A DNA stretch of 62,804 nt, filler included, from Phoronis australis (lineage: Eukaryota > Animalia > Phoronida), in assembly GCA_002633005.1 (NCBI GenBank). It is 8 parts of 8 records of this genome, joined end to end, with 100 filler letters (N's around TTAATTAATTAA, not from the genome) between each part and the next. Parts side by side here need not be neighbours in the genome. Positions count along the whole stretch, not along the records: positions 1 to 19,036 come from NMRA01001165.1; 7 more parts are not named here. The stretch is one strand, 5' to 3'. Made by a program: the position numbers and the translations under genes. Shown here in pieces: positions 1 to 45,732 of this stretch. The notes under the pieces were generated by a model. The model was not told the origin of the DNA. It searched no databases and worked only from the letters and a program-made list of their open reading frames with translations. Each line of letters begins with the position of its first letter. Within the stretch, counting starts at the first letter, position 1.

Positions 1-2539
1 CATCAAGTAGTTGTGCTCGGATGTACATCGGATCCATGGCTTTTGATTTCCGTGCTGGAATACTTTTCTTTTTCTTTCCTGTCGTAACTGTGACGTCGAT
101 GGCTGAAACGGTAGAAACGTTTTTAAGTATTAATTTTTCTTGGATGATATTTTTAAGTTTAGTTCAGGTTGACAGTGTTCACAATTGAACGGTTGTTGTG
201 ACAACAAGGCGGTTTCATTTTGAAGGACTCAAAGATCAGTGGCAGTAAACAGATAAGCGATCCCCAACACAAAAATCATTCACTAAACATCTCCTGCAAA
301 TACCTCCTTAACTAAGTGGGCCCACAGCAAAGTGCAAAACAACAGGTAGACATGGATGCTCAAAAATGGTTCAGCTCAGAGACGCGTTAACTAGTGCGAG
401 ATTTAGAAGTGAAGCAAATTTATCAGGCAAAACCAGAAACCGATAGTGCTTCGTATTGCTTCTTTCATGAAATGGTCACTAGCCAATTTTGCTGTTCACG
501 CCTTCAAATACTACATGCAGTAAGATCCATGAAAGATGTTAGGTAGATATATTAACGGCTTCCAGCATCCAGGAAAAAATCGTAATATCACCTATGCCAT
601 AGTGATTGTTCAATCAATTTATTTTTTATCAAAAAGTCCTTCGAGTCCATTCTTTTTATGCCGCTGGTTGCCAGTCCTCACGTCATCCACCATGGACAAA
701 CATGTCTCAACCCTTATGGGACCTTGTGTGTAATATTGTCGGAGTCCACCAAATTTTAGCCCTGGCAACTCTGCATTGATTTCATATATTTTGCTGCGAG
801 CCTACACACTGATATTAAGGTTGACCTATTCCAACGTAGCTGTGGCACGGATTTATTACACTTTCAATATGCAACATACCTGTAGAACAAGCTGAGACAG
901 AAAGAACCGAATCATTGAGAGTCACTACTCCCTCACCACTTCGTTCCGTTTCCTTGTCATTCTCTATCAGTCGTGTGATATCAACACACTGCGCCATGAC
1001 GTTCTGTGTTTAGTCTTGGCACAGCGTGGTATCTACTCAAGTTTCTCGAGATGCAACTATTATGCTGAAAAAATAACATAGAAAACATCTCACACGACTA
1101 TGGCGCACACCTTATCAAATCTCCACACAACGCTAATATAAAATCAAAACTGTCAACTTTATTAAGAATAAAAGATCATGTTTGCAATGGTAAATATAAC
1201 CGATGCGTTAAATGAACTATGTCGCATGGTTAAGATGGCAATGCTAACTGAAAGCTAAAATTTATTGTTTTCTACAAAACATAGGCCGATGCTTTACGTG
1301 TAAAACAATATTTGAAGACGCATAACCACTATTTGTGCGTATATGTACCACAATGTTATACCAACAAATAGATGTAACGTACTGTGTGAAGTTGTAGCAC
1401 AAAACGAATTGCCACATTCGGGACCCTGACTCAGAAAGACACGTCAAGCAACCACTGAACACGCTTATTATGTAACATAAATTTCATGTTTGAAATATAG
1501 AGTTACGTCTTCTGGAAGCACATCGAATAATACTGTTTCAGATGCAGACAACTACAGCGTACGGAAGTTTGATTGGCATATTTTCTATCTTAAGCTATTT
1601 GTTTTACAATATATTAGTTCTTACGTTTATGCAAGAGACAAATTAATACTTTGCTTTACGTGTAATTCCATGTACAAGTTTTGCACTGTTCCCTTGCCTG
1701 CAGGTCAAATGATTCTGTTTGCACATGCACATTTCCACATCAGACCGGGTCAACAGATTCAAACTTTGTTGGAAATGTNACAAAACATAGGCCGATGCTT
1801 TACGTGTAAAACAATATTTGAAGACGCATAACCACTATTTGTGCGTATATGTACCAGAATGTTATACCAACAAATAATTGTAACGTACTGTGTGAAGTTG
1901 TAGCACAAAACGAATTGCCACATTCGGGACCCTGACTCAGAAAGGCACGTCAAGCAACCACTGAACACGCTTATTATGTAACATAATCGAAATCTTACGC
2001 GTCAGAAGACTTTGTGATAACATACAGTTTCACAAGGTAATATGAGACTACTTAAACACTGATCCAGCTTTTTGACATGTAATTAATTCACCTGTACAAG
2101 TTTTGCACTGTTCCCTTTTCTGCGGGTCAAATGATTCTGTTTGCACATGCACATTTCCACATCAGACCGGGTCAACAGATTCAAACTTTGTTGACTTGCT
2201 TAAACTATTTACCGCATGGAATTTTTCCTACCGTGCTAACGCTTATATTTTATATTAATCGGAACCTTACGCGTCAGAAGACATTTCCATGTCCAGACCG
2301 GGTCAACAGATTCAATCTTTCCCTGAAGAGTCAAAATGATCTCTTGCGGTTACAAACACTAGGTGTAATTGACGACCGATTGTTGGCAGCAACATACACG
2401 TATAAGCAGTTAAAATGTCTAAAGTTCAGTGAAAATACATTCCGTCGTCCATATATTTGCATTTTATAAACTAGATTTATGCATTGGGTTGATTATTTTA
2501 TCTGCGCTTTAAACTTAAATCACTTAAATACTTTGACTT

Positions 2540-2953
2540 TTATATGGCTGAGTTTTTAATATGGCATAATCTTGCTTGTAAGAGTTGAAATTCTTTATAT
2601 TTGATGTACAATGGATCATTCAAAATATTTTTAGGTAATTGTTTTTTTTCTGTACTGGTGGACCGTGGTACTGAGCCATACATAAAATCAGAGTCCACGA
2701 ATGGAGGCAAATCCCCACATGTGCTCCCTGTGGAATTCTGTGGAGTTCCTAGTTTTTCTCTGTTGTCTCCATCTGGTCTAGATTTTGCTCGACACGATTC
2801 AGAGACTTCAATATTTACAGATGCAATATCCATGTTTTTCTCCAAATCCAGAAGTTTTTCATGACGCTTGGACTTCTGAGCCTTTTTCTGGCGTTTTAAT
2901 ACTTTCTGAAGAGCCCTGCGACGCTTCAGTGCTTGTTTGGAGTGTTTCGACAT
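2540..2953 (-). CDS. Uncharacterised basic protein, about 137 aa, with an NLS-like Lys/Arg-rich N-terminus (possibly one exon of a larger gene)
   Basis: ATG at 2953 opens a stop-free frame MSKHSKQALKRRRALQKVLKRQKKAQKSKRHEK...DPLYIKYKEFQLLQARLCHIKNSAI. This is long for such AT-rich DNA and protein-like, but no family was recognised. Confidence 0.4.
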   Translation of the reverse strand: MSKHSKQALKRRRALQKVLKRQKKAQKSKRHEKLLDLEKNMDIASVNIEVSESCRAKSRPDGDNREKLGTPQNSTGSTCGDLPPFVDSDFMYGSVPRSTSTEKKQLPKNILNDPLYIKYKEFQLLQARLCHIKNSAI

Positions 2954-5900
2954 TATCAAACTGGTACCACTGGAATTGGGAGAAATGTGAAGTTCTGAAA
3001 CCAGGTTGAGCAGTTATTAGTTTTACTGACCGATTCCTCATATTGCTCATTACACTGGATACAGAACAGAAATTCATCATGCAGAATGAGATTTTGGAAA
3101 TCGAGACACGTGCTCATTGCTGAACTGGCTCACGAAGTACGTGTACATGTATACTCAGGAATAAATACAAGAGACTAGGTAGGGGATGTCGGAGACGTGT
3201 TGCTGAGATGAGATGAGTTATTCAATTTTGTGTTATACATTAGGAAGACAAGATAAAGTGGCAGGAAACCAGAGACATGTGCATAAACAAACAAAATACA
3301 GGACTGTCTCAACATTGACAAATGTATGCATTCCTGGAATAATGTGAATTCTGACAGCCTCCTCTGACGTAAAATGTGTGTGTGGGGGGTAATAACACGC
3401 AGCAGATTAAGTGACAAACAGTCTTCAGAGAAGCTAATGCAAACTAGCTCAACTAGTGGTGTAAAATTCGACTGACACATGAGCGAAACAATTGACCAAT
3501 CAAAAGCAAGAACCTGAAAAAAGTGGCCAATAGGAGAGAACTAATGTCGAGGCAAACAACTGGAATTAATAGCAGAAAGATCAGAGGGCACGGACGGTTA
3601 GGAAATGAAAGAAGATCAGATGTCAGTTTAGATATCTAGTTAGTGGCGGCATTTACGAGGCCAAAACAGAGAATGCGACAAGAAACCACGGTGACGAAAA
3701 TAAACATCACAAAACGCAATACAATATGCTTTTCATGCAAAAACTGTACATCGCCTCTTGTGAGTCACGCGATACAAATTAAAGTGTAAGAAGTTATACA
3801 CTATTTTTGGCAATCTAGTTCTCCAAAAAGTTCTTATAAGTGCTTGTGAATAATTTAGAATGTGAATAATTTAGAAACGAGTCTAGCAGGGGGGTTCACT
3901 TGAAAACTCCGTTTTTAAACGATTATATGTCAGGTCCAAACAAAATAAAATGGCTTTCTACTACATTTTCAGAAAAAAAAAACATTTACTGAGTTAGTAC
4001 AAGCTTGTCGATAAAGTCCTACAAAACATTAAATACTTGAATGTTGTTGGCAGGTATTTCCCCATCAGGAGACTAAATGTAAGTCGCGACATTCGACTGT
4101 ATACACAAATATTCTGCTTCACGTGAGGTTTGGTCCCCAATATACTTTCAGTGTGACTTTAGTTCAGAAATCACGGTACGTCATTGAAAATATTTTCCCC
4201 AAATGACGCGGGCTAATATTCCTGTTATAGGTGTAGACTCAGTCCACTCGGTAGGTAGACCTACATGTGGAAGCCTAGTTACTGCCTCGGAAAAGGTATA
4301 ATGCAATAGTTACTTATACACTATCTTTTCAAACGCCTGCCAACCAGCATTCTAGTAAAAGCTTATGCTAAGGGTTTTGAGGTATACCGGTTTTGAATAT
4401 TAACATCGCTTATCTTTTAAACTAAGAATATAAAATACAGTACTTACCAAGTACCCTTGTCATCCAACAACACTTCAAATCGGTGGAAACGGCTATTGCC
4501 GCTTTATATGTGAACCACCCCTCCAACTACGCCAGCCAATGAGAGGATGCCGGGTCAAGGGTTTTCTGGCTTCTGATTTATGGACTCCCGGCCACTTTGA
4601 CAACGAGGTGCTTGCACGCAGCTTTGGCAAGAAACTAAATGGTTCTTACGTAACATTCCTTGGCCAAGACAAACCGAGAAGGATGACTTCAAGGGGACGA
4701 ATATTTTAACTTTTACAATCAGGTAAGCTTTTGGGGTTTATTTTTCATTCTAACTGTTTAATCTCAATTGCAAATTATAATTGGTCGATTATTGAAACCT
4801 GAAACTAAATTACGAAGAAACTCAAAGAAGTGTAGACTTCTGCCAATTATTATGGGAGTTAAAGAATTTCCAATTTTAAATTAAGAGTTAAAAAGTCTTT
4901 CTTTTGTTGTTCACCACTCAATTATCAAAATGTATTTTAGTTTTTATTTGCACAGGAAGGAAGACATTAAAGTAATTTTTAAATTACTGAAATATTTTGT
5001 GAGTGCCATGTGCGTTTCCTTTCTGTGAAATCTTACAATCTATTTGAAAGAACTTAGAATGGTCACTAACCGTGAAGTTCAGTGTCTTCTTGACATAATG
5101 ACCCACCATATTAAGGCCATCTGGGGCAATTTCCCCTTTACCTACTCATAAAACCACCGTTGTGAACAATTCACTAGGGACGTAAAAAACTTCAAATTGT
5201 TCAAGATAATGCACATTGCGTCCACGTGAATCACTGCAGTATCGAGAAAAGCAGCCTAGACAATCGAAAATATGAGATCGTGTTAAAAGCTTTATTGAAC
5301 GCCACCTAAAGGATAAAGGTTTGAATAACTTAAATGTTCTTGGTATATTTTTTGTATCATTGTACATGAGCGAATTTAGAGGGGGCAGGGGGCCCGCCCG
5401 ACACCCTTGGCTGCTGGAACAAACAAAACGGCAAAAGCGTGAGGAAATATTGAGTTCATTACCTAGAACCGGTAATTAACACGCGGTTGAGGGGAGGTGG
5501 GTTCAGATAAAGTTGAAAGTGTCTAATTCAGACAGCGGCACAATCGTTTCCCAGTTTTTATTAGTCTTCCGTTATTTTTTTTTAGCAGAAGGTCCACATC
5601 CTCAGAAGTTCGAAATTCGGGACCCCTAATTTTTAGGCTGGCGCGCATGCAATCACGCTTTGCGCAATTCCCCATGGCAACATGTCGCCCCACCCCCTTA
5701 TGATAGCCTAGATACGTCACTGCTCTATTTATGTAAATCGTTCAGTCCATTCTGGTTTTCTTATTTTACCATTACTTGTTAAATATTGTTTTAAAAACTG
5801 TACGGGGTTTCCGCGTGAACTTCACTAGTTTTTGCGGCAGTTGAGAGATACCGTATATTACATAATCTGAGAGTCAGCTGCAACGAACTATGACTGCCAT

Positions 5901-6719
5901 TTCAGGCACACAGCTTACTGTCCAAATAATAAAGTATAATCCTCAAAAGCATGTGGATGTTGAATGAACCTTATTTGGGCAAACGTTTCGACGTTACTAA
6001 GTTTCACTTTTAAGTGTTATACGGATTTTTACTCAAAAGAAACGGAAGTTTCAATAATTGAATTACACAAAGATAACATTCACGTTAGTTTTATAACGAT
6101 AAAACATCGATAATTTTTCCTTCAAGAACAGTGTTCCAACTAGCCAAGTTACTTAAATGACATTAACTGGTAATCGATATTGAATAATTGTGTGACTTTT
6201 TAAGTTCAAGTTTTGCTCAGTAACCGTAACAAGCTATATCTTAAAAACCAGAATCCAGTTAGGATAAATTCTGAATTTTTGAGAGCAGGGCCCAAACTCT
6301 CATTGGGCTGCCCCTTCTCTCATGACCGCCCTCCCCTCTTGTCAGTTAAGTGTCCACGCACATAGCCGGTGTGCATAGAATTACTGATTTCAAAATCTTG
6401 AAGCCTCCAATTCCTTAAAAACACGTGTTCTGTGTGTGCGTTTAGTTCTTACGTTACACAAATTACCATGCGATGAGAAAACAAACATTCCAACAAATAA
6501 ACGCTATTTCTTCTTCGTGCAACTGGCAAGACTTTCCCTAAAGTGCACCTTAGTAATTACAGTGGCTTGATTTGATAACCATCAAACTGGTATCGACGTG
6601 AATGCTGTTTTGACCAATAATCATATATTAAAGTAACGAGAATTAAATATATAAATATATAATATTCAACGATTTTTTAAGTTAGAACGTGGTCCTAGTT
6701 TATATCTCCTAATTGGCCA

Positions 6720-7300
6720 AAGGCGTTATAAACTCAGAAAATGTGTATTTTGCGATAGAAGTTGCGGCAGAAACGTTTAGGACTGCTACTTTAATGATTT
6801 AGAAAGGGAATTCAAATCAAAAATAGATGCTGAAAACCTCGAAAGAAAAAACACATCACAGGAACTGACTCAATAAACGTTAATAATTTAATTGAGTAGA
6901 TCTCCAACTAACAAACTGCATTTAGCGACAATAGTGGGTGCAAGTTTACATGTGAAGAAAGCACACAAAATATCGTGTGTACCGTTTCGCTTTCAACTAA
7001 TTGCCTACGTGGAAAATTCCAGTTGCTCAGAATCAACAGCACTGAAGTTATAGAACGTGGCATGGAACTTATCGATGAAATTCTCGAAAATGTTTCGGCT
7101 CCAAATCTGAGAGTGCCATCTAAACATCAATAGAAACCACAGCGTGGTGGGCCGAATTATCAAGATTCTGGTGATTGCCACGGAGCCTCGGACTTCAAAC
7201 AAGTGGCTGGACAGTTGTTAGTGATTAAACGGAATATGTTGCTTGCCGACGAACCCCACGAAGCCACGGCATGTAACGCAACGTGTATGCAAAACTTTTA
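6720..7300 (+). pseudogene. Possible decayed coding remnant upstream of the ParB-like gene
   Basis: Protein-like stretches are broken by stops, e.g. RYKLRKCVFCDRSCGRNV*DCYFNDLEREFKSKIDAENLERK and NSTEVIERGMELIDEILENVSAPNLRVPSKHQ*KPQRGG. No family was recognised. Confidence 0.25.
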
Positions 7301-7711
7301 ACGGGGTTGTTGACTATAAATCGGCACGCAAACCTCGTCACTCTACTTTTGACGGAGTTTTGCTACTGAACGATTAGATGCGCTTTGTTTCACAAACGGA
7401 GATTTCGGTGACGAGTTCTGTGGTAGAAGTGTCTGAATGAAGGTATATCGAACTGATGAAGTTAACTCAATTTGAATGTATAGATGCACAATGATTTTTA
7501 TTTGATCGGGTGAAAAATGGTCGAATCTTTTGAATGGACAGTGTATTTTGTTGCTCTCAATTGTTTGTATATCAGCTATTTAAGATAGCTTATTCTTTGT
7601 ACACATACTTAAGTTATAATGAATTCAGTTGAGCTACTATATTTTGCATATATTGTTGATTTCCGTTGAGTTATTTATATCGGACCTTCTGACGTTTGTC
7701 ACCTTTTCAGA

Positions 7712-10700
7712 ATGGCGTGTAGTTCCAAGAAATGGACATTGACTCAAGACACAGCCACTGGAAACATTGTCTTAATACTAGAGGGGAAAAGATTTTGTGA
7801 TTACATAAAAGGTACCGTCACTGTGCTGTAATGCAAAAAGTCTATTTTTCCTATTTTATTTTCCTATTTTGTTTGTCTATTTTGTATTTTAGATAGTAAT
7901 GACGCAATTCCCAAGTTTCACAGCCTTTAGAATACTGCACACGGAGACGACACTATAGTCACTTACATTCAACCTTACTATGCTTATTTTTTCCAGATTC
8001 TGGCATTGCTGGAGTTGACAGTCAAGGAATCGTCGAGAAGGTTGTGGAAGATGGTTACACAAAAGTGAAAGTAAGCATTGTGTATTACCCGTTATTGTTA
8101 TTTTCTAACTTAGACGATTAAAGCATGTAATGATGACGGAATTTAAGAAGTCAGTTTGTGGAAATTCATATTCAGGACAGTTAGAGAGATTAGTTTAGGC
8201 CCATTAGGATTTTATTAAGGTCTGAATATTAGAAGACCGGCAGGGCTCAACATTAACTTTTTAAGTTGAATTTTTACTTGCCCGAACAACGAATTCACTT
8301 GCCCCAAGTACAATCCCAAATAGCACCGTGCATGTGCACACCTAGGTAATGTGTTACCGTAGGGCTGCCTGTGCTGAGCCTCCTCTTGTGTTGTGCACGC
8401 TATATACATGAGTTGCTATTTTTTCAACGATTCTTCTTATAGAACATTTATTTATAAGGTATGTCAAAACACTAGAGAGATAAATTAGAAAAGTAACTAT
8501 GGTATCTGAACCACTGTCACATGTTCACAGGCGCCGAAATGAGCTAGGGCATGAACTCTGGACACTTCTGTGTATTCATTAGTTTATACACCCTCATGCA
8601 TTAAACTTGAGTTGTTGCTAACCTGAATTTCATTTTTTGCTATCCGTAAAAATCTTGCACAGTTTTGGTCATCGGTAGCTTGTATTAAATTAAAATCAAA
8701 ATTTAACATATAAAAATGCCACATATACTTTTATTTTCAATATATAATTACATTTTTGAAAAATAGAGAGACCGCGAAAAAGTCAGACATCAGACTTTAG
8801 AGCGGTAATTCCGAAGACCGTATTCCTCTTCTTTCGGGAGTCGCAACCGGGAGCCGGGAATTCAGAAGAATATCCTTTGGAATTCTCCCTGAATAAATAC
8901 CAGGCCTTTTAAACTGCTGTGTAGTGTAGAAAATATGTCGTCAATCATTCACTTTTTAGCTTTTGCGCTTATCTGCATGACTTACATCCGCTGACGAACG
9001 CGGTGCTTCCAGTTGTACATAGGTAAACGCTGGCAAAAATCAAACGTCATCCCTTGTTCACTGTCTCGCAGGTCAGAAAACCTAATTTCCCATGACGGAA
9101 CCCATCCCCGCACTTTTCGTTTCATATTATTGCTTTGTTTCTTCCTGAACTCGTTTTTTAGCAACTAAACCAATGCCGTCCAGGCCTGGACGGCTTCCAT
9201 GTTAGACGTTTTGCCAGAGTGCAGACGATCAGTAGTATCACGTGACAACTTATTCAGAAACTGCAGGCACGTTCAGAGAATCGAAAGGATTTGACCCCGA
9301 GCGTCATCTGTGCACGTTGCATACCACTCATTCTATTTTCCTTTCGGTGCTCATTCGGAGACGGGAGTTTCTTTGACGGCCACAGGGACTTTTCGACGGT
9401 TTTTAGGCTTGTGTCGGGGTTCGTTACTTTGGAGCAAATGTCGAGCAGACAATCTTAGGATCTACTTGCCTATGCAGCTAGCTTTTTTTACTTGCCCATC
9501 GGGCAAGTACTTTTCAAATTCCACTTGCCCGACTCAAAATGTACATGTACACAGGCAATCGGGCAACCGTTTGAGCCCGGCGTCCATGATTCCGACCCGT
9601 AACCCCCACCCCCGGCAAATATCACCCCCAAACACACAGATGTTTTACAAAAAAATCACAGACCAAGGTTTTTACATCTAAGTTTACAAAACAGCCTTCT
9701 GTAGTGAGCATTTAACTACAAAAAGGAAGATATAGACGAAGGGCCCGTTCCAACAAAACTGACTTAGCTAAGACATTTCTTAAATTTTACTTAATTTTGA
9801 AATAAGTTAAATTTGTCTCAAAACAGCCACAGGCTTCGTATACCGAAGTCAGCAATTACTGGAAGCTGGAACACCAAAAGCAAAAACAGCACAGCTGTTC
9901 AGCATGGTAGTGAGCTATTCAAAGTCGTATTCCTGGGTTACATAACGTCTGTGTTTTATTAGATATTGTGATGAGAAATGAATTTGTTGTTTATTATTCT
10001 AACTTACGTTTTAATTATTTCAAATGGATCTGTTCCAGCGCAGATCATGTACTCTTTTGATTTGTTTACTTTTTGAGGCTGAATTGTCCCCTGGAATCTA
10101 TCCACACACATAACAGGATGACCCAATGTTCACAGAAACATTCTAGAGCCAAATAACCATTCCCCAACATGGCAACATTGTGATGAATTTCTTATGATTT
10201 CTTTAAGTTCTTAAGATTGTTTTCGTGAGTCACGGCTCAGTTGCACAACATTATTGTCTGGGTGATACCCATATAAAGCAGTCTAATTGAAAAAATGGTG
10301 TCAACAACCTGTTTTGTACTGGACTTAAAAAGCAAAACCGTCAATGACTTGATATCATAGATGTGCCACACAGTGAAATTTTTCAGCAACCCTTTGCACG
10401 GTTGCGTACATTTTACTTTCAGAAATTTCTTGAATGCCTCGTGGACGAAGTTGAGGCTAAAAGAATTGACTTTTGCAAAGCATTTGCTGTCCTCATTGCT
10501 TGTAGTACTTAAGGTGTTTTTCCATGGTTGCCATCTTTGAGCCATATATATTATGATACGTGCATGCTTTGCTTCAAATACATCTGTGGCATTAATTGCA
10601 ATTTCTCAAATTGTATACCAACTTTCCCCAAAGAAAACCGCACGTGTTACCCAAGACTGTGAGTTAGTCCATGTCTTCCAAATTTTTATCTCTGATCAGA

Positions 10701-13700
10701 TCAGCACGTACATTCATAAGTTCAGCACAGACAATCAAGTAGTTTAACAACAGGGGCGGATGCAGAGAATTGAGTTGGGGGGGGGGGGGGCAGGNNNNNN
10801 NNNNNGGGGCAGGGCACAGGGAGTAACCAGAATTTCGCCAAAATTTGAGCACAATAATTTTTGAGATTGTGACCTTTGATGAAGGTTATGAATTTTTCAT
10901 TGGCTCCCCCCTTAGCAGTCCGGAGTGCGCGCATATCCCATTCAGCCAAATCAGAAATCTGGGAGAATTAAGGGGAGGGTATGGCCCCCTTGACCCTTAT
11001 CTAAATCGGCTATTGCAGTCATAAACCTATTATATGCTTGACACTGGCATAATGGTACTCAGAATTTTGAAAACTTTAAGTCTTCGTATTGCTCGCTCCG
11101 CGTGGATTCTTACGGTGGATATGCTTAGCTGCGACTAATCTTTGGTAAAAGCTTGTATGTATAACTTTACTGACTTGGAAACAGTAGGTCATCAATAGTA
11201 AATCCTCCATCTGCCATAACGTCGTCATTGGGTATAAGGTATTCCATTTCAGTGCAAATGCAACCACATACTTTGTAATATTGTGCGATTTGTTCTGGCG
11301 ATGGGTTTCACTACCTATCAATGATTTCAAATCAGCTGATCTGCTACCTAATTCAAAACACAAGCTGAAACACCACCTCAGAAGGATTGTTTTACATGAG
11401 ACTGTACTGACTCCAGTGTTTTGTCCGCCATGCCTGGTAATAGCGGGACCTCAATATGGCGCTTATCTTAAATGGCGTTATCCAATATGGAATCTGTCTA
11501 TTGAGGAACACCCAACTATTAAATTTAGACACTGCTGGGAGAGGCAGGTTATGCACATTTGTAAAGACCGATTGTTTAAACCAAATTTTGAAGAACTGAA
11601 AAGAGGGGAGGTAAACATTTGCTGGTAAATTAAATTTCAACAGGGTGGAATGCAGATTCCACTCAACTTAAAATAAATGGCAAAACAATGTTGGATGAAA
11701 AATTAATGTCATGTCACTTGTGCTCGCATGTTTGAATATTTTGTACACTAACATACACCACATATTATTGAAATTACATTTTTTCTAGGATCGTGTTTTC
11801 ACTGTTTAACCGATGTAGTAATAATTTGCTACAGCAACGATTTTCTACTGTCAGACGGGGTCTCGGAAAGAAAAATGATTAAGTGAAAATTGGGTAATCA
11901 CATAATAGCAAACATTTGGCAATCTAGTCGATGTGTTTCGAAAAATTAAGATTTTTTAAAAAGAACAGTCTGAAGAACGCGAATTGCTTTGCTACGGCTA
12001 CTTAGTTAGTTGTTCAAGATGGTGGTTGGACTTGTGTGTCTTATCTAGTACATAGGGCTAATTAATTTAAATCCGCCGGACGACTTATTTCCATTTACTT
12101 GACAAATTCGAGACTTATTTTGGAAACATCCGAGCATAGACATTTAGCGAATGAGAACACCCTCACGTGATCTATATGTATGCATTCTGTAATTAGACCT
12201 TGAAACCCTCTACAATAACCGCTACTGTTTGGGCTGTAAATATCCTGGTGTCTGGTTGATAAAGTTTTGATCGATTGTTGTTTTATAAAGTCAAGCATAC
12301 ATTGCTTTGGTTTTATTTTGTCACAATTCTTCATTAATTAAAACTCTTGAGGTACCGCTAGATAAATTCGTCGATTTCCCCGCAAAATTTGTCAACAAGT
12401 AGTATTACACCAATCGTTCTTCATATGCTCCTTCCTGTGGACCTGCCTGGATGCAAACTTGAGGATATAATAACAATAATAGCACACAAACATAAAACAT
12501 ATTTCATAATACCTGACCGTTTTTTCTTTCAGGAAATGTATAGTTTTTCTAGTTGACGTAAACTGAATTTTTATGTGTCAGTCAGAACAGATTTGGCAAA
12601 TAATCGTAACACTATTGTCCATTTCAGCTTTTCCTTGACAGTAAATCTATTAAAGATGGATACTGTTTAACCAAAGATGTTCGGAACTTTGAGTGTAGCA
12701 CACTATTTTCGCAAAAATTTCGAGAGTCTACCGGCTCAGCCAGCCAGTTCAAGTCAGTGATGGACGGTGAACGTGTATATGACTGGACTGATAGTGATCT
12801 GGATAACGAGCAGCACGACGGTGATAGTTTAAATACATGTGTGTTAGACACAGTGGAACCGCTCGCTGTCTCAACGCCTTTAAAAAGTAACGTTTATGGT
12901 GATTTAGAAGATCTGCGTTTTAAATGCCTCGGGAGGTTTTCCATCCCAGTACAAGATATAAAGACTCCAAGTAAGAGTCGACGAGTAAGAGATCTTGATG
13001 ACGATTTTGTTCTGACCCTTGAAAAAGACATTCTTACAAGCAAGAACACCTCGGTGATATTTTCAGCTCCTCTAGTTGGCTTTGTCACTGACTGGGACGA
13101 AAATTTCTCCAAAGAAAGTGCCTCATTGTATACCATAGAAGCAATAGACGGAAATCATAGTTTCCATGCTCAGCAAAGAGCGTTGGCTCACTGCCGTTCG
13201 GACGAACTAGTGAACAGGGAAATGATTCTGTACCATGGGTTGTCTGATGAGGATTGCGTTCGTATTGGCCTCAAGCGAAACAGCATGGCTGCACAATCAC
13301 TGAAAATGAATGAATTTGACAAAGTGTTTCTTGCCAGAAGGCAGTTGCTCTTAAGGTGTGGCTTGAAAGAAAATGACGATCCTCCACAACAGACGCCCGA
13401 CTTCTTTACAGATCTGTTTACCAACATCTTGAGCATTAAACACACGGTAAGAAGAAATTGGTTTTCCTACTAAATTTTCTTCCTACATGCATTAAAATCC
13501 AATTTCGGTAAAATTTTACCTATAGTCAAGACACATTATGGTGAAACTTACTGCGAATTTTTATCAGTCTATTTTAATAAAGTATTTATAGAATTAAAAA
13601 ATTTAAATTTAGCATTTAAAGACTCTGTACCGTAGCTACCACCAAATAATGACTTGAGAAATGTAAAGCCAATCATGTTTGACACTAACTGTTATCTAAG

Positions 13701-16700
13701 TTGATGAGATTTTGCTGTAATTTTGTGTCACTATCACCCGGCCTGGTGACAGCGCTTAACACAAGCGATGTGTCACGAGCGCTCAAAAATTCGACTGACT
13801 TCAAATTTTGCACTCGTATTTTCAGATATTCATTCGTAAAAGGAGATGACGAAAAAAAAGAAAAAAAAAACGCCGGGCGCCATTCAGCGCCTGCACGGAT
13901 GAGTCGTTTTTATTTAAATTTTCCACACGAGTCGGAAATTGCGACCATTTCATTGGCAGATCAGTCCTTGAATTTTTGGCTGGTACTTTTTCAATGTAAG
14001 TTTCTTCTATTTCAAATTGCGTGCATAGGTACTTGAAAAAACGTGCCAGTTGGAGACCGCCGCCTTATCTTTCACAACTAGCCTAACGGTAATGGCAACT
14101 CCTTTGAATTCCAGACATGTGTTTGTCCAGGTGGAAAGGGAAAAGTTAACGGGGTTTGACCATTTTGTCTCTCTTGCTTGCGGTATTTTCTAGAGACACC
14201 ATGCACAATGCTTAGCGATGGTGGTGGTAAATGTCTGGTTCCCTACCTGTAGTTGAAATTTGATTGATTAGTTGCATTCGTCTAATTGGTGGTATGTAAG
14301 TCTTTTCAAACACGTCTTTTTCCGTAGTAGTCACAAATAAAATCAGTTTTTATTTGCTTGCCTCGCAACTTCTGAAGAGGACTGGCGTAACATAGGGAAT
14401 TTATTTTGGGACGCAGTTTGCATTCTCTGCAATCCATGTAATTCATTCAATTTTGATTGTCCCAATACCACGCACATCAACACTTCCATTGTTCTGGCGT
14501 TTTGTTATTAAATAAATTACTACTTTTTAGAAAGCATCCCGTGACTCCAAGTCCACTGCTAGGATGATAGCGTCAAGGTTGTCACATAGGTGTTTTGAAA
14601 TCGTGAAAGGTATAATTACCCAATCCAAGAACAAGAAAACGATTCCTCTAAGTAGGTTCAGAGGATTGCATGGCTTAACGGAGGAAGAAATGTATAATAT
14701 GCTGGTTTCCTTGTCAACTGCAAAGGAATTGGATTGGGCGTCATTTCAAGAACGTGTAACAATGCTGAAAGATTCTAAACGGGTAGGTCTATATCTCCTA
14801 TGCAGGACATAGTATGCCTCATAACACCGGCGTTCTTTCAGAGGGTACTTGTATGGAGAAATTGTATCAAAAATTTAATTATAAGTATACATGAAAAATG
14901 AGCAATGAAGTTGGACTTCAGATATGTTTGCAAACACAAGCTATTTTTTCATAAACAGTGGTCTATCTACACGATAATTAGAGGAATTACCTTTCTTAAA
15001 TTGATGTGAGTAGTTCCGACATTTGATATAAGTTTGCAATTCTGAATCATGCTTTCAAACTCGTGGCAGGCAATTTCGTTCATTTATTTTTGTTGTGTAT
15101 TTGCTGAACATAATGATACACAGACCATTTGTCTTCAGGACAAACAAGCCCCAGTGGCATTTCTTCAGCATCTGGACAACACAAGATGCTCATTGGTACA
15201 AGGTAGCAAGAGGCTTACCTTCTCCTCCTTAGAAGTGCAAGTGGGACCTAATCGTTTCCTTGTATCATCAGAAATGCTAAAAACCTTCATCGAAACTAAT
15301 ACTGGTATGGACTGTTTTGGTGAAATAAGTAGTGTATTTGTTTATGAATATTTGCATGTTAATACTGTACGTATGCACGTATTCTAAATGGCACATTTAA
15401 GATTCACTGTTCATGATGTCCGGTTGTAAATTTTCTCTCCGATAATTATACTAGTTTAGTAGTTCTTTAAATCGGTCATTATTCCAATGTTGCAGATTCC
15501 TTCGAACCCGCACCTATTAAGAAAACAAAACGGAAATTGGATTTGACCGAATCGTGTTCGGAAGATAGCCACACAACCGTTGGATCGTTAAACTTGGAGA
15601 CAGAAGAGTCATCAATTCCTGTGACCAAAGTTAGATCTCAAAACAGTACAGAAACACACACGCAGATCCCCTCATGTGCACCACAAAATTTACAGCCACA
15701 AAATGACATCCAAACACAAATCCCCTCCTGCGCACCACAAACTGTTCGGTCAGAAAATTACATCCAAGCACAAATCCCCTCCTGCGCACCACAAACTGTT
15801 CAGTCAGAAAATTACATCCAAGCACAAATCCCCTCCTGCGCACCACAAACTGTACAGTCAGAAAATTACATCCAAGCACAAATCCCCTCCTGCGCACCAC
15901 AAACTGTACAGTCAGAAAATTACATCCAAGCACAAATCCCCTCCTGCGCACCAAAAACTGTACAGTCAGAAAATTACATCCAAGCAGAAATCCCCTCCTG
16001 CGCACCACAAACTGTACAGTCCCAAAATGACCTCAAAACCCTCTTCCCAGCCAGCACAGAATCCTACATCACTAAAAAAAATCAAAATACACAACCACAG
16101 TCGCCCAGTTACACCGAGAGTAGACCAACTGCACCATCATCGAGCAACCAAGTTGACATACAGTTTTGCACTGATCTGGAAATTGATGAAGAGTCAGAAG
16201 ACGACGACATTTCTTTGGCCAATAGTGCAAGTATGTCTGATTGTTTTTAACAAAAAATTGAATTTACTGGGGTTAAGGCTTGTTTGCAAGGATACGTAAG
16301 CAACAATCTTTCAGTCCCCAACCTTTCAAATTCCGCTGCTTTAAAAATAAATTTCAATTAAAAGATTAGACCACTAAATTGAGAAGGCATTGACGGGTCT
16401 ATAAGGTAATATTCTACTGAGCAGGCAGTGTGGCCCGATTTCTTTACTCCAGGTTGTGGGTTCAAGTGCCACTGAGTCACACTGCTAAACCCTTGAGTCA
16501 GGGTTCTAGAAACACAACTCGGTTTTAACTATAGATTAATAAAGCATAAAAATGGTTTCAGGTGATAAATGCAATGTGCCCACATGCGCGGCCTACGCAC
16601 GTCTGGTACAACGTGTATCAGACCGCCTGCAACAATTTTTATTGCAATTAATACTTTACTCATTTCATTCACAATAGAGTAAATGAGTTGATCCTACAAT

Positions 16701-17223
16701 GTGGTCGAACTTGCAATCATTTTAGAATTGAACGGGATTAACAACCGCCTTGTGGCGCTTAGCGCGTCTTATTTACGTGAGTAAATAACTTAGCATTGGT
16801 AGTGATATGTTATTGCACAGCAAGTCATTTTCAGATATGCTTTGTTTTAGAGCACTTGCAACATTACAGGTTTAGAATGGTGTATCTAAATATACTTATT
16901 GTCATCGCATTTTAGACGGATTTACTTTGTGGGAATCGGTCAAAGGCGTCGAAGAAGGAGACTGGGTAGCAATAAGACCACCAGCCAAACATTACAGGCC
17001 TTCTAAGCCTTGGCTTGCAACTGTAGAAAAGGTCTTTAAGAGATCTTTAAAAATTATTTGGTGGGGAGGAAGTTACAAAGGCTTTTGGAGAAAAGCGCCA
17101 TATGCTGCAAAAAACAAAGACACTGTTCACATGGAGCAGGTAGTTTGCCGCTTCCGCTGGGATGACTCTTCAAAAATGCCGGAAGGATTAGTAATTAGGT
17201 TAAAGAAAATTTTAGATGAGTAG
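7712..17223 (+). CDS. Spliced gene (about 958 aa): unknown N-terminal region, ParB/sulfiredoxin-like domain, 18-aa tandem repeats, C-terminal Tudor/BAH-like domain
   Basis: Hand-spliced exons are 7712-7811, 7997-8070, 11188-11610, 12628-13446, 14531-14782, 15139-15304, 15496-16230 and 16916-17223. All introns are GT..AG with matching phases (1,0,0,0,0,1,1), giving 2877 nt with no internal stop. The junctions from 11610 onward are strong; linkage of the 5' exons is less certain. A probable 5' non-coding exon donor lies at 7442/7443. Confidence 0.75.
8241..9580. mobile_element. Non-autonomous hAT-like DNA transposon relic in intron 2
   Basis: Termini are CAGGGCTCAA (8241) and TTGAGCCCGG (about 9580), with clustered subterminal ACTTGCCC(G) motifs at both ends. 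No TSD is visible. Confidence 0.5.
10216..10658 (+). pseudogene. Candidate disabled exon of the ParB-like gene
   Basis: Acceptor ttaag|ATT is phase 0 (matching exon 2) and donor CT|gtgagt is phase 2 (matching a good acceptor ttcag|T at 11253). The single frame IVFVSHGSVAQHYCLG...FQKFLECLVDEVEAKRIDF...RTCYPRL has three in-frame stops (10288, 10345, 10510). Confidence 0.4.
10751..11014. mobile_element. CAGGGGCGGATC-family MITE (gapped copy)
   Basis: Begins CAGGGGCGGATGCAG and shares internal sequence (GGGCACnGGAnTAACCAGAATTTCG) with the copy at about 58779. Its right end is the reverse complement of the 59430 copy's left end. Confidence 0.55.
12628..13446 (+). CDS. Exon encoding a ParB/sulfiredoxin-like N-terminal (NTPase/nuclease-fold) domain
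   Basis: 273 codons between ttcag| and |gtaaga. The motif order RRVRDLDDDFVLTLEKDI...APLVGFV...YTIEAIDGNHSFHAQ...REMILYHGLSDEDCVRIGLKRN fits the ParB/Srx pattern, with the catalytic Arg position of DGxHR read as Ser. Confidence 0.75.
15663..16040 (+). repeat. Coding minisatellite, 54-bp unit, about 7 copies (QIPSCAPQTVQSENYIQA)
   Basis: Units begin at 15663, 15717, 15771, 15825, 15879, 15933 and 15987. They are near-identical and frame-preserving within exon 7. Confidence 0.95.
16424..16634 (+). mobile_element. tRNA-derived SINE in the last intron
   Basis: tRNA-like head GGCAGTGTGGCC...GGGTTCAAGTGCC (B box). The body matches the reverse-oriented copy at 30917-31119 down to the ACCGCCTGCAA tail. 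Confidence 0.7.
16916..17223 (+). CDS. Terminal exon encoding a Tudor/BAH/SH3-like beta-barrel (putative chromatin reader)
   Basis: EGDWVAIRPP...PWLATVEKV...LKIIWWGGSYKGFW...DTVHMEQVVCRFRW has the strand pattern and aromatic residues typical of Royal-family/BAH barrels. The phase-1 acceptor tttag|AC fits exon 7. Confidence 0.6.
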
Positions 17224-18074
17224 TAGTGGTTATTTGTAGCGGTGCTAAAGTAAACTTTCTCCAATTTTAGTGCAGTTGTGACCACTCGCAAATCTAAGAG
17301 AACATTTTCTGGTGCTACACTGTAGCTGAAGTGCAAAATTTGAACGTCAAAAATATTGATTCAAAGCTATTACAAAAAATTGGGTAATTAAAATTGCTCT
17401 GGCGTGCCTTATTGGGCCTACATTGGTAAGACTTAACTGCAGCTTAGTTTACCGGATTTATACCCTTTATCTGTTGTATGGGTGTCAATTTGTTTAAATG
17501 TGCATGATGCCATGACAATTGTGTGGTGAAAATGGCATTGTTTCGATTTTGGTACTGGGATGGAATGTAGTTTTAAATTTATTTGGAGACTGTTATAATT
17601 CTTATTACATGTTTTATCGTACAAATAGAAGAATAGTGGCATCTAAAACCTGTACAGAAGTTCTTAAATATAAGCCAGGGAGAAAAAAATACTGGGATCT
17701 ATATAACTGCGAAAATAATGTATATGTGTTTAAATTTAAGCCCCTGAGAAGAACACTTGAGGCTGTTTTAGTAATGTGGGTGTCCTTAAATTGCACTCTG
17801 TCCACTGCCAATATGGGCTTTTTTGTATTAGGATTAGTTAGGATATTTGACAATTGTATTTTTTTAGTTTTGATTTCTTTTGAGATGTGTTCGGCTGAAG
17901 TAACCAACCTGTCAACCTTGACAGGTCAAAAAATACCAACCATTTTAACGTTTCACGTCTTACAGGAACGACCACCCATAATTTGAGTTTTTTTCTGAAG
18001 ACCACTACCCATGAATTTTTATTTCTACTGCCGTCCCTTCCCACACGGATTTTACTGGAACAGCCCTTACACTT

Positions 18075-18880
18075 GTGCTTAATTTTAGGCCAGACTTCCG
18101 ATCTTGCACAGAAATTCTTAAATTTAAGCGGTATGTTCATGTATATTGCTTACTCTTGTGCTTAATTTTAGGCCAGATATCAGACCTAGCACAGATACTC
18201 TTAAATTTAAGCGGGATGTACATGTATGTTGCTTGCTCTTTTGCTTAATTTTAGGCCAGATTTCAAACTTAGCACAGATATTCTTAAATTTAGGCGGGAT
18301 TTACATGTATTTTACTTGCCCTTGTGCTTAATTTTAGGCCATATTTCAGAATTAGCACAGATATTCTTAAATTTAAGCGGGATGTACATGTATGTTGCTT
18401 GCTCTTTTGCTTAATTTTAGGCCAGATTTCAGACCTAGCACAGATATTCTTAAATTTAAGCGGGATGTACATGTATGTTGCTTGCTCTTTTGCTTAATTT
18501 TAGGCCAGATTTAAGACCTTGTACAGATAATCTTAAATTTAAGCTGAATTTACATGTATTTTACTTACCCTTGTGCTTAATTTTAGGCCAGATTTAAGAC
18601 CTTGTACAGATATCCTTAAATTAAAGCGAGGGTTTATGTTACTTACCCTTGATCTTAATTTTAGGCCAGATTTCAGATCTTGTATAGAAATTCTTAAATT
18701 TAAGCCATGTTTATGTTACTTGCTCTAGTGCTTAATTTTAGTCCAGATTTCAGACCTTGTACAGAAATTCTTAAATTTAAGACGAGTTTATGTTACTTGC
18801 ATTTGTGCTTAATTTTAGGCCAGAGTAGGAGATACCGATTTTAAAACGTACTTGTACAGATATTCTTAAGTTTAAGCATC
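18075..18880. repeat. Tandem array of about 83-bp units, about 10 copies, each with a CTTAAATTTAAG palindrome
   Basis: TGCTTAATTTTAGGCCAGAT recurs at about 83-bp spacing (about 18077, 18160, 18243, 18326, 18409, 18492, 18575), then at slightly shorter spacing. Each unit holds two related half-sites. Confidence 0.92.
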
Positions 18881-21800
18881 GTTTTTGTTATTACATTTGT
18901 ACATGTATGGCAGATTGTACTGAAATTGTTAAAATATATCTTTTTCATGTAGTTGTTTCCTTATTTATCCACATAAGCCTATAAAATCGTGACTTTGGAC
19001 CAAAACAGAAAAGTTTAAATTTTCAGAAGAACCGGTNNNNNNNNNNNNNNNNNNNNNNNNNNNNNNNNNNNNNNNNNNNNTTAATTAATTAANNNNNNNN
19101 NNNNNNNNNNNNNNNNNNNNNNNNNNNNNNNNNNNNCAGGTATTACAGATATTACAGATATTGGTTGAACGATGAGTGCACTGTTTTTGGTCATCTCAAG
19201 TCAAATTCTGTTACAAAGTTTATTATATCAACTTCACTAGCTTTATATTCTGTACAATGAGTCATCAAAGCTGCAGTTACCAACAAAAGAAAAATGCACA
19301 GTTGATGTGTGGTTCATATTTTGGCAACAGGTGTCACTGCTGCTCCATTTTAGACGCACATACAAAAGCATGAAACGGGCGAAAACTCAAACATTTTAAA
19401 TGGGGATATTCTTGCGGCACATCATATTATTAAAATAATGACATTTATTTAGCTTTTGGTGTTTTCAAAAAAAGATGAAGTAGATGAAAGTACAGCTCTG
19501 AAACACACGTTTGGAGTTGAGCAAGGTCGGTGTCCCTATATAAAGTACAGAATTGCTGTGGCACATGAGTCTACTGAAAGCAGACACTCTGGCAACCAAA
19601 CATGTGCTTAATGATTGATAGGCCTACCAAATACTTTGAAAATAGTTTGAACATTGCAACATTTGAAATACATTGTATACTTCTTTCTGAGTTGAAAGGG
19701 CCAACTTCTCTCTTTGATTAACTGGGAGTCTTAGTAATCTTACAATGTGGGTGTCCAAACTGGAGAAATTCTGATTGACAGGGCGTCCAAATGATNCGTC
19801 CTTGCCAGGGCGTCTACATTAGTGCTAGGGCGTCCATTTGGACGCCCAGGACGTACGCTGCATGAAGGCCTGTTCTGTGGTCATTGTTTTCTTGAACTCT
19901 AAATTACTATTCATTCGGTGTGGTAACATCTCAACAATTTCGGACAAAAATAGTTATCAGCTATTACCAAAATTGCTGGTTTTACATTTTTCAAAGACTT
20001 CCAACACTGTTTTAGCATGGTTTCTAAAGCATAGTTGGCACTAAGTAATCATTTTGTGAGCTTTTGAAAAACAGAAGCAGGGCACTTTCTAGCCAGTTGA
20101 ATAGGTTGAAATGCAGGCAGTAATAAAAACTTCAATATCTGTTGTGGACCACCTCTAACAATTTTTGCCAACAGTTAGTTCACGCCTCCAACTTTTTGAG
20201 AAGTGCTTAGAGCATTCCTACGCTGTCACTCCTGCAGAGGTAAGTCTATCGACTTGCAGTGCCTTTCATAGCAATGTCGACCAGTGGAAATTTTGGAAAG
20301 ACTACTAGTCCTGGATCAGTAGTGTCGGTGAACATTGCTGTAAACAGGTGGATTTAACATCGAATCAAAATGTGGATGTTCTTGTATAAAGTTGCTTAGC
20401 TAGTGCCCACCGGTTTGCTTTAATTCACCTTCTCTTAATGCCTGGAAGATTATTAGAAATAATTAGACTTGTGTTGTTTGCTGTTCTCTGTAATGTCCCT
20501 TTAATGAGTATCTAACTAAATCTAAATTGCTTCCTGGAATTTCGGTAATTTGTCATATTACGTTTACTTATCATTATGACAGACTCATTAATTCCCCCTG
20601 TAATAACTTACATATTGCACAAAGTGCATTGATTCCTGAACCTGATGTGATAAAATGTAACTTGTGAATAGCTTTTTGTAGGAATTCTGTAAACGCCCCT
20701 TATCCAAATACATGCACATAGACCTACTGTGTACATTTGGAAAATTTTCGGAACACAGCCTCATGGTCAATTATAGTTATCTGAGGTTTGTAGATTTCCT
20801 AAAATGAACACAGTAACCAGCGTAGAGCAAAAACAAGGAATTTGTGAGAAACATTGTGTATTTTAGCATATTTCTGGTTTATAACAAAATACACGTTTTT
20901 AATTGGCAATTCTTCATCTAAATATGGAGGACAAGTGAATTTCATTTTTTCACTTTTCCATAAACACAAAGTATAGGAAAATTTTAGCATATTATTAGCT
21001 TGGCTTGTACAGTCGCGGAAAAAAATTGGTAAAAATATTATTCACTGGTTGCATGAATTCGTCATTATGCTTGTAAGTAAGCAGTTGTGTCCAAGGAAGC
21101 TACAGTAGTTATGTGTGTTTGGAACAGGCACGCTTTCACGTTGGCGTCGTTAAAATTGATGCTAAAATGAGACGTATTGTCTTAACGAACAATGCACAAC
21201 AAACACTTTTGCAGTGCCAGCAGCAGTAAATTACTTGCAGGAAGATAATTTGCCTTTTNNNNNNNNNNNNNNNNNNNNNNNNNNNNNNNNNNNNNNNNNN
21301 NNTTAATTAATTAANNNNNNNNNNNNNNNNNNNNNNNNNNNNNNNNNNNNNNNNNNNNCTAATATTTACTGTCATGACCCTCAGGACGTGTTATCACTTA
21401 TGTTGTTTTGATTTGATGCGACGTTACGTTGGGCGTGCGCACTAGAGCGCCACCTGCAGTACGGTTAATCCGTGAGTGGAATTTTAGGCATACTGCCAAC
21501 ATCAATTGCTTCCACTTGTCGTTAATGGTTATGACTTCACGAAACAAACATTAGGTTAAGCATAAGAACCCGCAATTGCCGATTTCAAGTGTATTTTCAA
21601 CGGTCTTGTTCATTTAAATCAGTAAGAACTCGTCTGCTCGTCGGCCATATTGAATCATTCTTGTATACCTTCTGTTCATTACAGTGTCATACGAGAGGCT
21701 GATTAAAGGTGCTTTTGATGTCAGCTCCTACAGTCTGTTCCACAGATGTGCAAAACCTGAAAAATGAACAATATACTTGACCAAAGTCTTGAAAAATCTC

Positions 21801-25500: not shown

Positions 25501-26105
25501 TTTTCGTTGTGTCTGTTTCTGACATAGACGAATGCACAACTTCGAAAGAGTGTTCGCCTTTTGCTAACTGTGAATATTCCGAGGGTTATCATTCTTGTGC
25601 ATGTTCGGAAGGTTACGTTGACAAGATGAAGGACGGATATCCCGGTCGCACATGCGTAATGCAGTGTTCCCGAATCGTCTGCTATAATGGAGGTTTCTGC
25701 AGAGAGGACTCTGACGGTCACGGGTCGTGCAGTTGTCCTGTGGCGACACACGGAATGCACTGCGAAATTAGTGATCGCCAAAATTTGAGACGTTGGGAAG
25801 TAGCTCTTGTTTCATGCTGTCTTGCTGCAGTGCTTTTGACTTTACCATTGTTTCTGGTTTACATTTCGTTAAAACGAAAAAAACGCCAACGAAAAAAGTC
25901 CACCATCCAAAACTTTCGGAGGAATTTTGGACCCACAGTTGTACCAGTGATTTATGACGATTCAAACACAAACCTAAATGGAAGTTTATTCCAATCTGTG
26001 TTTCTATTCCAAGGGAGAAACGGTTACGTTTTCTTCGGTTACAGCAGTGACCTCGAATGGTACTGGGAACCCGTGGACGATTTTGATTCTGTTATTTCGT
26101 TTTAA
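22530..26105 (+). CDS. Type I membrane protein: signal peptide, SEA-like domain, Ca-binding EGF, EGF, TM helix, basic cytoplasmic tail (SP63/uromodulin-like-1/mucin-type architecture), about 382 aa
   Basis: Exon 1 (22530-22599, MEHVFDLLLVFVILVVCNHQTYA, donor G|gtatgc, phase 1) joins exon 2 (25027-26105, tgtag|GT) in frame. It encodes cbEGF DIDECTTSKECSPFANC...GYHSCACSEGY...PGRTC, EGF CYNGGFC...CSCPVATHGMHC, and TM VALVSCCLAAVLLTLPLFLVYI followed by KRKKRQRKK. The SEA assignment is by position and pattern only. Confidence 0.85.
22916..24678 (+). mobile_element. Non-autonomous Helentron-type element (HINE/DINE-1-like) with internal tandem core repeats
   Basis: 5' TTTTTATGCGCCCAC...GTGGACGCAT short inverted repeat, then a (CCGT)n microsatellite at about 22970-23010. 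This is followed by about 150-bp monomers in an about 450-bp higher-order repeat and a 3' GTGGGTGCAT...CTCTTGTT end. A second copy lies at 54879-55554. Confidence 0.75.
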
Positions 26106-30916: not shown

Positions 30917-31119
30917 AATTGCAGGCGGTCTGGTACACGTTGTGGGCAATTGCACTGATCACCTGGAAATATTTTTGTGCTTTATTAATATATTGCTAAA
31001 ACCGAGCTGAGGAGCTAGAAACCTGACTCAAAGGTCTCGCAGTGTGGCCCAGTGGGACTCGAACCCACGACCTCGAGTAAAGAAGGCGGGCACCATCACA
31101 CTAGGCTACACTGCCTCCT
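30917..31119 (-). mobile_element. tRNA-derived SINE, same family as 16424-16634
   Basis: On the - strand GAGGCAGTGTAGCCTAGTG (A-box-like) precedes GGGTTCGAGTCCC (B box) and the shared body. Confidence 0.75.
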
Positions 31120-45001: not shown

Positions 45002-45610
45002 CTGCAAAATGTCATTGTCACAGGGTGATTTGTATTTCTTCCTTAGAGCAAGCTCATGATGTCGGTTTGTCACAAAGAGTTACTTTCAGTCTCCAAAGCA
45101 ATGTGGCCGCGAGGGTAATAATCATGCTATGAACATTCCCACTAAATAAAATTGGTTCTANNNNNNNNNNNNNNNNNNNNNNNNNNNNNNNNNNNNNNNN
45201 NNNNTTAATTAATTAANNNNNNNNNNNNNNNNNNNNNNNNNNNNNNNNNNNNNNNNNNNNGGGCTATTAACATTGCCCCGACATCAAAATGTAAAATCCT
45301 GCTTGAAAATTAGTGCTCCTTGAAACTTTAGCAACTGAAGGTCGGCATTCTCTGGTTCAAGATCATGACACCAATACTCCCAATTTTTTCACAACGTGTA
45401 GGGAATAAGCGACTTTAACGCATAATTGTTTGGGCCCCCCTAAAACTCTCCCAGATTCCATTTGACAGTTCAGGGGTGTGAATGTTTAACTGGCAAAATC
45501 CTGGCTAACACTCTGCCCTGCTCCCCCCTAACTAAAAATCCTGTATCCGCTCCTGTACATGACATCTTCATGAACATTTTTGTGTATACCTTTATCACCG
45601 GGATATTTAC

Positions 45611-45732
45611 CACATGTTGGCGCAGTGTGTACAGAGTTGAACGTTTCATCCATCAGGCATTTCATCATCGACGTTTTCCCAACAGCCGAATCACCCAGCA
45701 GCAGGACTTTATAGCTAACATCATATTCACAC
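45611..45732 (-). CDS. Exon of a Rab-family small GTPase (G1/P-loop to switch I)
   Basis: tgtag|G-CEYDVSYKVLLLGDSAVGKTSMMKCLMDETFNSVHTAPTC-G|gtaaat contains the GxxxxGKT P-loop in Rab-like context. The phase-1 donor falls at the position of the TIG| intron common in Rab genes. Confidence 0.8.

Follow-up and report, generated by a model that had tools for sequence, protein, structure and literature searches.

The locus at positions 7712–17223 (+ strand) of a 62,804-nucleotide stretch of DNA from Phoronis australis (GenBank assembly GCA_002633005.1; the whole stretch is hereinafter designated the window) raises the question of why an animal genome carries an intron-containing gene that joins a bacterial-type ParB/Srx domain to a barrel resembling those of chromatin readers. 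A previous reading, made from the sequence alone (the sequence-only reading), described a poorly known nuclear protein in which a ParB-fold nucleotide-binding module is coupled to a reader domain. Our analysis indicates that the gene is real, that its predicted fold is that of ParB and sulfiredoxin, and that it belongs to an apparently undescribed family of invertebrate proteins. Tentatively, we see in it an accessory gene that belongs to a large DNA transposon or was left behind by one, and whose product would bind the palindromes of the element and nearby chromatin.

The ParB/Srx-fold domain of exon 4

Exon 4 (12628–13446) encodes the end of an N-terminal domain, an acidic linker, the ParB/Srx-fold domain (~12925–13300), and helices. 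An exhaustive protein search with window positions 12895–13446 as the query and a cut-off of E 0.001 returned 62 matches. The domain was folded from an alignment with 50 of these (12, mostly long ones, were left out), and the prediction has a mean pLDDT (predicted local distance difference test) of 93. The ten highest-ranking Foldseek matches of the model in the PDB are all ParB, Noc, PadC, or KorB-complex chains, the best being 7bm8 (E 8.5e-6). In a wide fold search, ranks 1–8 are occupied by PadC, KorB, Pnob8 ParB-N, Srx, Atu1540, a serine kinase, Srx, and SbnI, with Z from 10.3 to 6.4, followed by a drop to Z 4.1. PadC is the best match (Z 10.3, root-mean-square deviation of 3.8 over 130 aligned residues), and viral ParB-like models also match the fold. 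The ParB/Srx assignment of the sequence-only reading is thus confirmed by prediction and fold search, while Pfam misses the domain.

Sulfiredoxin (SRXN1) shares the ParB/Srx fold (Z 7.9; profile match E 0.63) but differs from the window protein, which has Asn87 in place of the Cys of FGGCHR, is ~8 times longer, and is multidomain. The earlier conclusion that the protein is not a sulfiredoxin therefore stands. In the PDB, a search with the single window sequence found nothing and a profile search found sulfiredoxin alone (E 0.63–0.72); a huntingtin match from a wider profile was rejected as low-complexity.

Unlike bacterial ParB, the window protein has an extra N-terminal domain, repeats, and a barrel, and its gene has introns. 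The region following the domain continues into the helical exon 5 (14531–14782), which is weakly collinear with the canonical ParB recognition helix and the helices after the helix-turn-helix (HTH). Specifically, the alignment to the ParB HTH and following helices has an hhalign score of 25.8 (P 0.0014, probability 17%), compared with 11.4 (P 0.4) for a reversed control. This region was overlooked by the sequence-only reading, as were the signs of mobility described below. The HTH_ParB family of Pfam has no match in the main window frames or in the relatives scanned, and no ParA family was found by Pfam among the scanned window frames. A homodimer prediction for exon 4 scored 0.27 against a mark of 0.32 and was counted neither for nor against anything.

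Box II, Box III, and the pocket

Exon 4 was aligned to a profile of bacterial ParB (85 sequences from 87 loci). Box II of the window protein reads DGNHS, so that GNHS lies opposite the bacterial GERR and the arginine position of GxxR is Ser; in Box III, RN lies opposite EN, the acidic position being Arg. Among 61 relatives (see below), the GxxR arginine is kept in 9, and an arginine is found one place later in 25, one protein having both; 26 have no Arg at positions 89–91, nor does the window protein. Other than that, the pocket is strongly conserved, with R32 in 52, G86 in 59, N87 in 55, H88 in 58, and N129, the Box III Asn, in 57 of the 61.

According to the passages of a 2025 survey of the ParB-CTPase fold that deal with these motifs, an Arg-to-Ala change in Box II abolished nucleotide binding in the ParB-fold proteins tested, and Box III commonly diverges among orphan members (PMC12704722). 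The label ‘nucleotide-binding module’ is therefore doubtful for exon 4, because the arginine needed for binding is Ser here. The near-invariance of R32, N87, H88, and N129 indicates that the pocket has probably kept a use of some kind.

The C-terminal barrel

Exon 8 (16916–17223) is predicted to encode an SH3-type barrel and a terminal helix, and ends at the stop codon. The fold was predicted from six sequences with a pLDDT of 80; one Trp is invariant in the six, and other aromatic residues are present. The top structural matches are the Esa1 knotted Tudor, ORC1 BAH, EBS BAH, TIP60, and PHF19, PWWP domains matching too, and they are intermixed with KOW/Spt5, UBE2O, and CHAP-type barrels (Z ≤5.8). 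Foldseek gave E 0.028 or worse and none at ≤0.001, and Pfam has no match. An SH3-type barrel of Tudor/BAH-like shape is thus supported. The nearest named Atlas cluster, DUF7869 at 0.81, is a lead only.

The barrel resembles those of the royal family (Tudor, chromo-barrel, PWWP) and BAH, but the likeness is limited, since the best of these matches (Z 5.8 at most) are tied with KOW/Spt5 and UBE2O. Of the reader domain proposed by the sequence-only reading, the barrel fold holds; the reading of histone marks is not supported, because scores of Z 5–5.8 are generic and are equalled by KOW and other SH3 barrels, and it may at most be supposed for this model.

A family of animal relatives

One of the 62 matches, P0053 (4943 residues, repeat-rich), was discarded as false, leaving 61 relatives. 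The records of 28 matches were read, and 11 of them give a species: 5 amphioxus, 2 hemichordates, and 4 bivalves. All 11 are annotated as ‘uncharacterized’ except one called TTC16 by its source. The closest identity of the window protein to any relative is only ~40%. In an unrooted quick tree, amphioxus and bivalve members fall in both halves, with long branches and low deep support.

Ten relatives exceed 500 residues. Three of them match exon 8 directly (blastp, E 3e-5 to 0.002), and inspection by eye places a barrel at the end of 6, doubtfully in 1, and in none of the other 3 as annotated. Against family profiles built without the window sequence, exon 5 scores 49.6 bits, exon 6 9.3 bits (best shuffle 8.0; segments for this profile were delimited by eye), and exon 8 27.6 bits, and none of 500 shuffles reaches the score in any of the three cases. 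Because relatives join both domains and window-free profiles recover exons 5, 6, and 8, exons 4 and 8 are, as judged from these alignments, truly linked, and their union is no artefact of the splicing done in the sequence-only reading. The fusion described by the sequence-only reading is accordingly borne out by several single proteins.

Many short relatives stop at the end of exon 4, and of the 40 relatives that have a residue just beyond this point 28 have Val. This suggests one intron position common to the family, the Val being a read-through of the GT donor.

Domain libraries add little. No Pfam family covers the gene, the six main window frames give no ParB or Tudor match, the window sequence is unmatched in NCBIfam, and TIGR00180 is unmatched among 51 sequences scanned. 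Some relatives match ParB-like PHROGs, DndB, GmrSD_N, DGQHR, and SerK models, all weakly. Pfam finds no methyltransferase or 2-oxoglutarate (2OG) oxygenase family in the window exons or in 60 relatives, in agreement with the earlier remark that no methyltransferase motif is visible. Two word-seeded protein searches found none of the longer relatives and are uninformative, since such relatives exist. Locus searches of metagenome and viral contigs found no family member. In one relative, P0026, a weak Herpes_teg_N match (E 0.013) comes after the ParB half, perhaps a read-through into another mobile element.

Gene model

The 958-residue model of the sequence-only reading was rebuilt exactly, with 8 exons, GT-AG ends at every intron, and zero internal stops. 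When 11188–11610, its exon 3, is dropped, a 7-exon model of 817 residues results whose frame is just as open, because this block begins and finishes in phase 0. The acceptor of the block has 6 pyrimidines in 15, compared with 9–12 in 15 at the seven other positions scored. A profile of the N-termini of 7 relatives gives the 7-exon form 5.3 bits, the 8-exon form 0.8, and exon 3 alone −1.6; the test is weak, as the top score among 200 shuffles is 5.2 bits. Exon 3 has no match in a Pfam scan and no counterpart in the N-termini of relatives, and the window contains 9 stop-free frames of at least 141 codons, several of which show no sign of coding. The poor acceptor, the profile preference, and the frequency of chance frames of that length favour seven exons. 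On this modest evidence the gene probably has 7 exons (817 residues) rather than 8 (958 residues), and exon 3 is probably no exon but an open frame inside intron 2.

Exon 1 (7712–7811) contains the start ATG and opens a ~110-residue N-terminal domain of unknown fold, within which exon 2 (7997–8070) also lies. An AG acceptor directly 5’ of the ATG makes an upstream non-coding exon possible; a TATA-like word at ~7316 and a GT donor at ~7443 (within 7300–7450) could mark such a first exon. Exon 6 (15139–15304) is a short conserved segment of unknown fold. Exon 7 (15496–16230) encodes a basic KKTKRK patch (a possible nuclear signal), 18-residue repeats, and an acidic tail. The 54-nt repeat is present in 6.7 in-frame copies at 15666–16028; relatives have repeats at the matching position, but these are unrelated in sequence. 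All exons lie on the + strand.

One interspersed repeat, onto which reads and a contig derived from its other copies fall, occupies 8349–9571 in intron 2; another occupies 16433–16632 in the last intron, with an inverted second copy at ~30941–31091. Intron 2 also holds a short coding-like frame (10348–10509, + strand) with a negative Pfam scan, which we take to resemble the C-terminus of SAMD3-like repeat-borne proteins. N gaps are found in the scaffold at 10795–10805 and from 19037. An Rfam scan of 1–25000 found nothing.

Signs of mobility

Near-identical copies of family members are dispersed in two amphioxus assemblies, both labelled hybrids. P0016 and P0081 are identical over 320 of 320 residues and lie on sequences of 17.1 and 20.2 Mb. 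P0011 and P0082 are likewise identical over 320 of 320, the truncated P0088 matches at 319 of 320, and these three lie on sequences of 26.0, 24.4, and 22.2 Mb. The two protein types have a mutual identity of just 62%. Given the sequence lengths, and the near-identity of copies compared with the 38% difference between types, the copies probably sit on different chromosomes of one parental set. In Crassostrea virginica, 4 loci lie on four sequences of 48–58 Mb, with 92–97% identity in the compared pairs, and 2 are truncated.

Two B. belcheri gene models join the family-type barrel to another domain match. In P0083 it is joined with a weak DUF6589 match (E 1.9e-4), which we presume to mark AcademH-type transposases. 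In P0084 it is joined with a weak Helicase_C match (E 0.002). Helicase_C is among the domains given for AcademH, KolobokH, and Helitron elements in the relevant part of one source (PMC10799480).

Downstream of the gene, the 12-bp palindrome CTTAAATTTAAG occurs in 12 copies with ≤1 mismatch (17663–18876), compared with 0.54 expected, and nowhere else in the window. Most copies lie in an 83-nt tandem array (18066–18824). These candidate binding sites are 0.4–1.7 kb from the gene; the shuffle control supports repetition alone, not a binding-site role.

Precedent comes from algae. In the sections that describe them, the Plavaka gene PAG3 of the red alga Bostrychia is reported to have a ParB-like domain, which escapes standard domain scans, and adjacent tandem inverted-repeat arrays (10.1101/2025.02.11.637652), and the Sola1-1_Ec32 element of the brown alga Ectocarpus to carry a ParB-methyltransferase gene (PMC12477816); each product is proposed there to bind its own element. 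As far as those descriptions allow comparison, the algal genes and the window gene are alike in having a eukaryotic ParB-like domain, and PAG3 is further alike in that standard scans miss the domain and a tandem inverted-repeat array adjoins the gene, here at one locus. They differ in that the algal proteins carry an enzyme domain (a putative 2OG oxygenase in PAG3, an N4/N6 methyltransferase in Sola1) and the window protein an SH3-type barrel, and in that the algal genes are part of defined elements that include a transposase, whereas the window gene is in an animal host and no transposase was found in the scanned frames. The algal genes would be a nearer analogy than the fusion named in the sequence-only reading, the bdelloid N4CMT.

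The dispersed near-identical copies in relatives, the palindrome array, and the algal precedent lead us to favour, tentatively, the transposon origin. The predicted product retains the ParB core, a ParB/Srx fold followed by HTH-like helices, with a Tudor-like barrel at the end. The helices may recognise a palindrome in dimeric form, in the manner of ParB at parS; the ParB/Srx-fold domain, with its Box II eroded, would serve as a nucleotide-independent or otherwise liganded dimerization or bridging module instead of a CTP-hydrolysing clamp; and through the barrel the complex would be anchored to nucleic acid or to marked nucleosomes. Such anchoring could help the element to avoid being silenced, to bring its ends together, or to select its targets.

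Several observations weigh against this proposal. The hhalign probability of the HTH match is just 17%, and the oyster member, which sits on a long branch, lacks the barrel as annotated. The DUF6589 and helicase matches are under Pfam cut-offs and in merged gene predictions. Three Pfam scans, covering 110, 92, and 107 frames of the window, found no transposase or helicase family; they have low power for short frames and skipped some frames, most of which coincide in part with repeats or with the gene. Long terminal inverted repeats were looked for within 1–19000 and not found. Finally, tandem arrays of palindromes are a common feature of repetitive DNA in invertebrates, and reads show the 83-nt array within other transcripts, so the array may be unrelated to the gene.

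Competing explanations

An ordinary host gene, old or domesticated, encoding a nuclear chromatin protein with narrow expression (germ line or embryo) is unlikely, and is nonetheless the alternative that fares best; it comes near to the view taken in the sequence-only reading. It would explain why 817 codons are intact despite repeat insertions in two introns, why one intron position appears to be family-wide, and why no transposase was found nearby in the scanned window frames, the duplicates in relatives being ordinary gene duplications. It sits poorly with the identical copies on separate chromosome-size sequences and the truncated copies seen in an oyster assembly and in both of the amphioxus assemblies, and with the ~40% identity to the best relative.

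Rather unlikely, and compatible with either genomic origin, is that the ParB-fold domain works enzymatically or switches with nucleotide, as a nuclease, kinase, or nucleoside triphosphatase with a remodelled pocket, aimed by the barrel and acting on DNA or chromatin. The conserved pocket residues, the arginine kept at GxxR or shifted by one place, and the weak DndB, GmrSD_N, DGQHR, and SerK matches of some relatives speak for it. Against it stand the lack of any arginine at positions 89–91 in the window protein and 26 relatives, the reported effect of replacing the Box II arginine by Ala on nucleotide binding (PMC12704722), and the Arg at the acidic position of Box III.

A more ambitious version of the transposon origin, to which we give a low probability, is that undescribed giant DNA transposons of marine invertebrates, possibly of the helicase-bearing AcademH or KolobokH kind, run a parS/ParB-like system. 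The bacterial-type clamp would load on the palindrome arrays of the element and, by way of the fused histone-reader barrel, spread over or tether its chromatin. In this version, some sub-lineages kept the nucleotide-binding arginine, and others shifted or lost it.

The last account of substance concerns expression. Three RNA runs under the same species label, ~18–19% of each of which was read, give a depth of 0–0.2 in the bins with exons 1, 2, 4, 5, 6, most of 7, and 8, and at most 0.33 across exon 3, which is in dispute. No joint among those listed (15 of 22) fits a predicted intron. In the sampled RNA the gene is either silent or rarely transcribed, and its splice junctions are predicted. 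This would suit a recently inserted relic with no present role, its frame intact solely through youth. The control is weak, as a nearby WSC-domain exon is also at depth 0 in these runs, with a spliced minus-strand transcript at ~39.4–44 kb visible at low depth; and the introns have accumulated repeat insertions while exons and splice sites are all intact. A relic is therefore a poor candidate, more improbable than the foregoing.

Bacterial or viral contamination, or the chance joining of unrelated open frames, is refuted by collinear full-length animal relatives and keeps almost no probability: the ParB fold is mainly prokaryotic and the feature-nearest Atlas clusters are bacterial or viral hypothetical proteins, but exons 4, 5, 6, and 8 each align, in exon order, with one set of animal proteins, the species-named relatives are animals in 11 of 11 cases, and phage and plasmid collections have no tblastn match.

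Other features of the window

Upstream of the gene, on the opposite strand, coding-like frames at 2543–3013 and 622–801, one of them Lys/Arg-rich, have no significant Pfam or PDB match and may be part of a partner gene arranged head to head and extending beyond the window. A 367-codon open frame at 25002–26105 (+) encodes EGF repeats together with a hydrophobic stretch that probably spans the membrane, and is possibly a retrocopy. On the minus strand, three exons, two of them with a WSC domain and one Roc/Ras-like (34317–34631, 44637–45011, 45531–45791), perhaps represent one or two genes uniting a small GTPase domain with WSC domains. The low-level stranded transcript at ~39400–44000 (−) has CT..AC joints at 41201–41841 and 41202–41851 and long frames without a Pfam match.

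A composite tandem repeat (units of ~146/453 nt) is found at 23046–24680 and 54877–55504, the two copies being inverted relative to each other and 30 kb apart. Near-identical direct duplications flanking single Ns (1274–1480/1780–1986 and 42333–42632/42893–43192) are probably assembly overlaps, and N44-TTAATTAATTAA-N44 blocks at 19037–19136 and six similar places are most likely assembly gap linkers, not biology.

Implications for the ParB fold in animals

In the ParB-CTPase survey, sulfiredoxin is the commonest eukaryotic representative, and the words ‘metazoa’, ‘animal’, and ‘Tudor’ are absent from its main text (PMC12704722). The term ‘ParB’ is likewise absent from the main text of an amphioxus paper on horizontal gene transfer (PMC13350694) and of the Chlamydomonas v6 paper (PMC9940879). 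The ParB-type HTH-methylase fusions of chlorophytes and chytrids, as treated in the pertinent part of Iyer et al. (PMC4738411), are not the family of the window gene. Our literature searches yielded no description of the family; supplements to PMC12704722 or to bioRxiv papers and Repbase entries could list members. The invertebrate family is thus apparently undescribed, and a variant of the ParB-fold fusion proteins.

The family adds a multi-phylum animal branch to the ParB fold, one missed by standard domain libraries. Its natural series of GxxR motifs, kept, shifted, or lost, can be used to ask whether a ParB clamp works without nucleotide or on chromatin. If the gene is transposon-borne, the idea of self-binding ParB-like accessory proteins, proposed for algae, would reach animals, with a reader-like barrel replacing the enzyme; and if the improbable giant-transposon clamp were true, it would be a ParB DNA clamp acting on animal nucleosomes.

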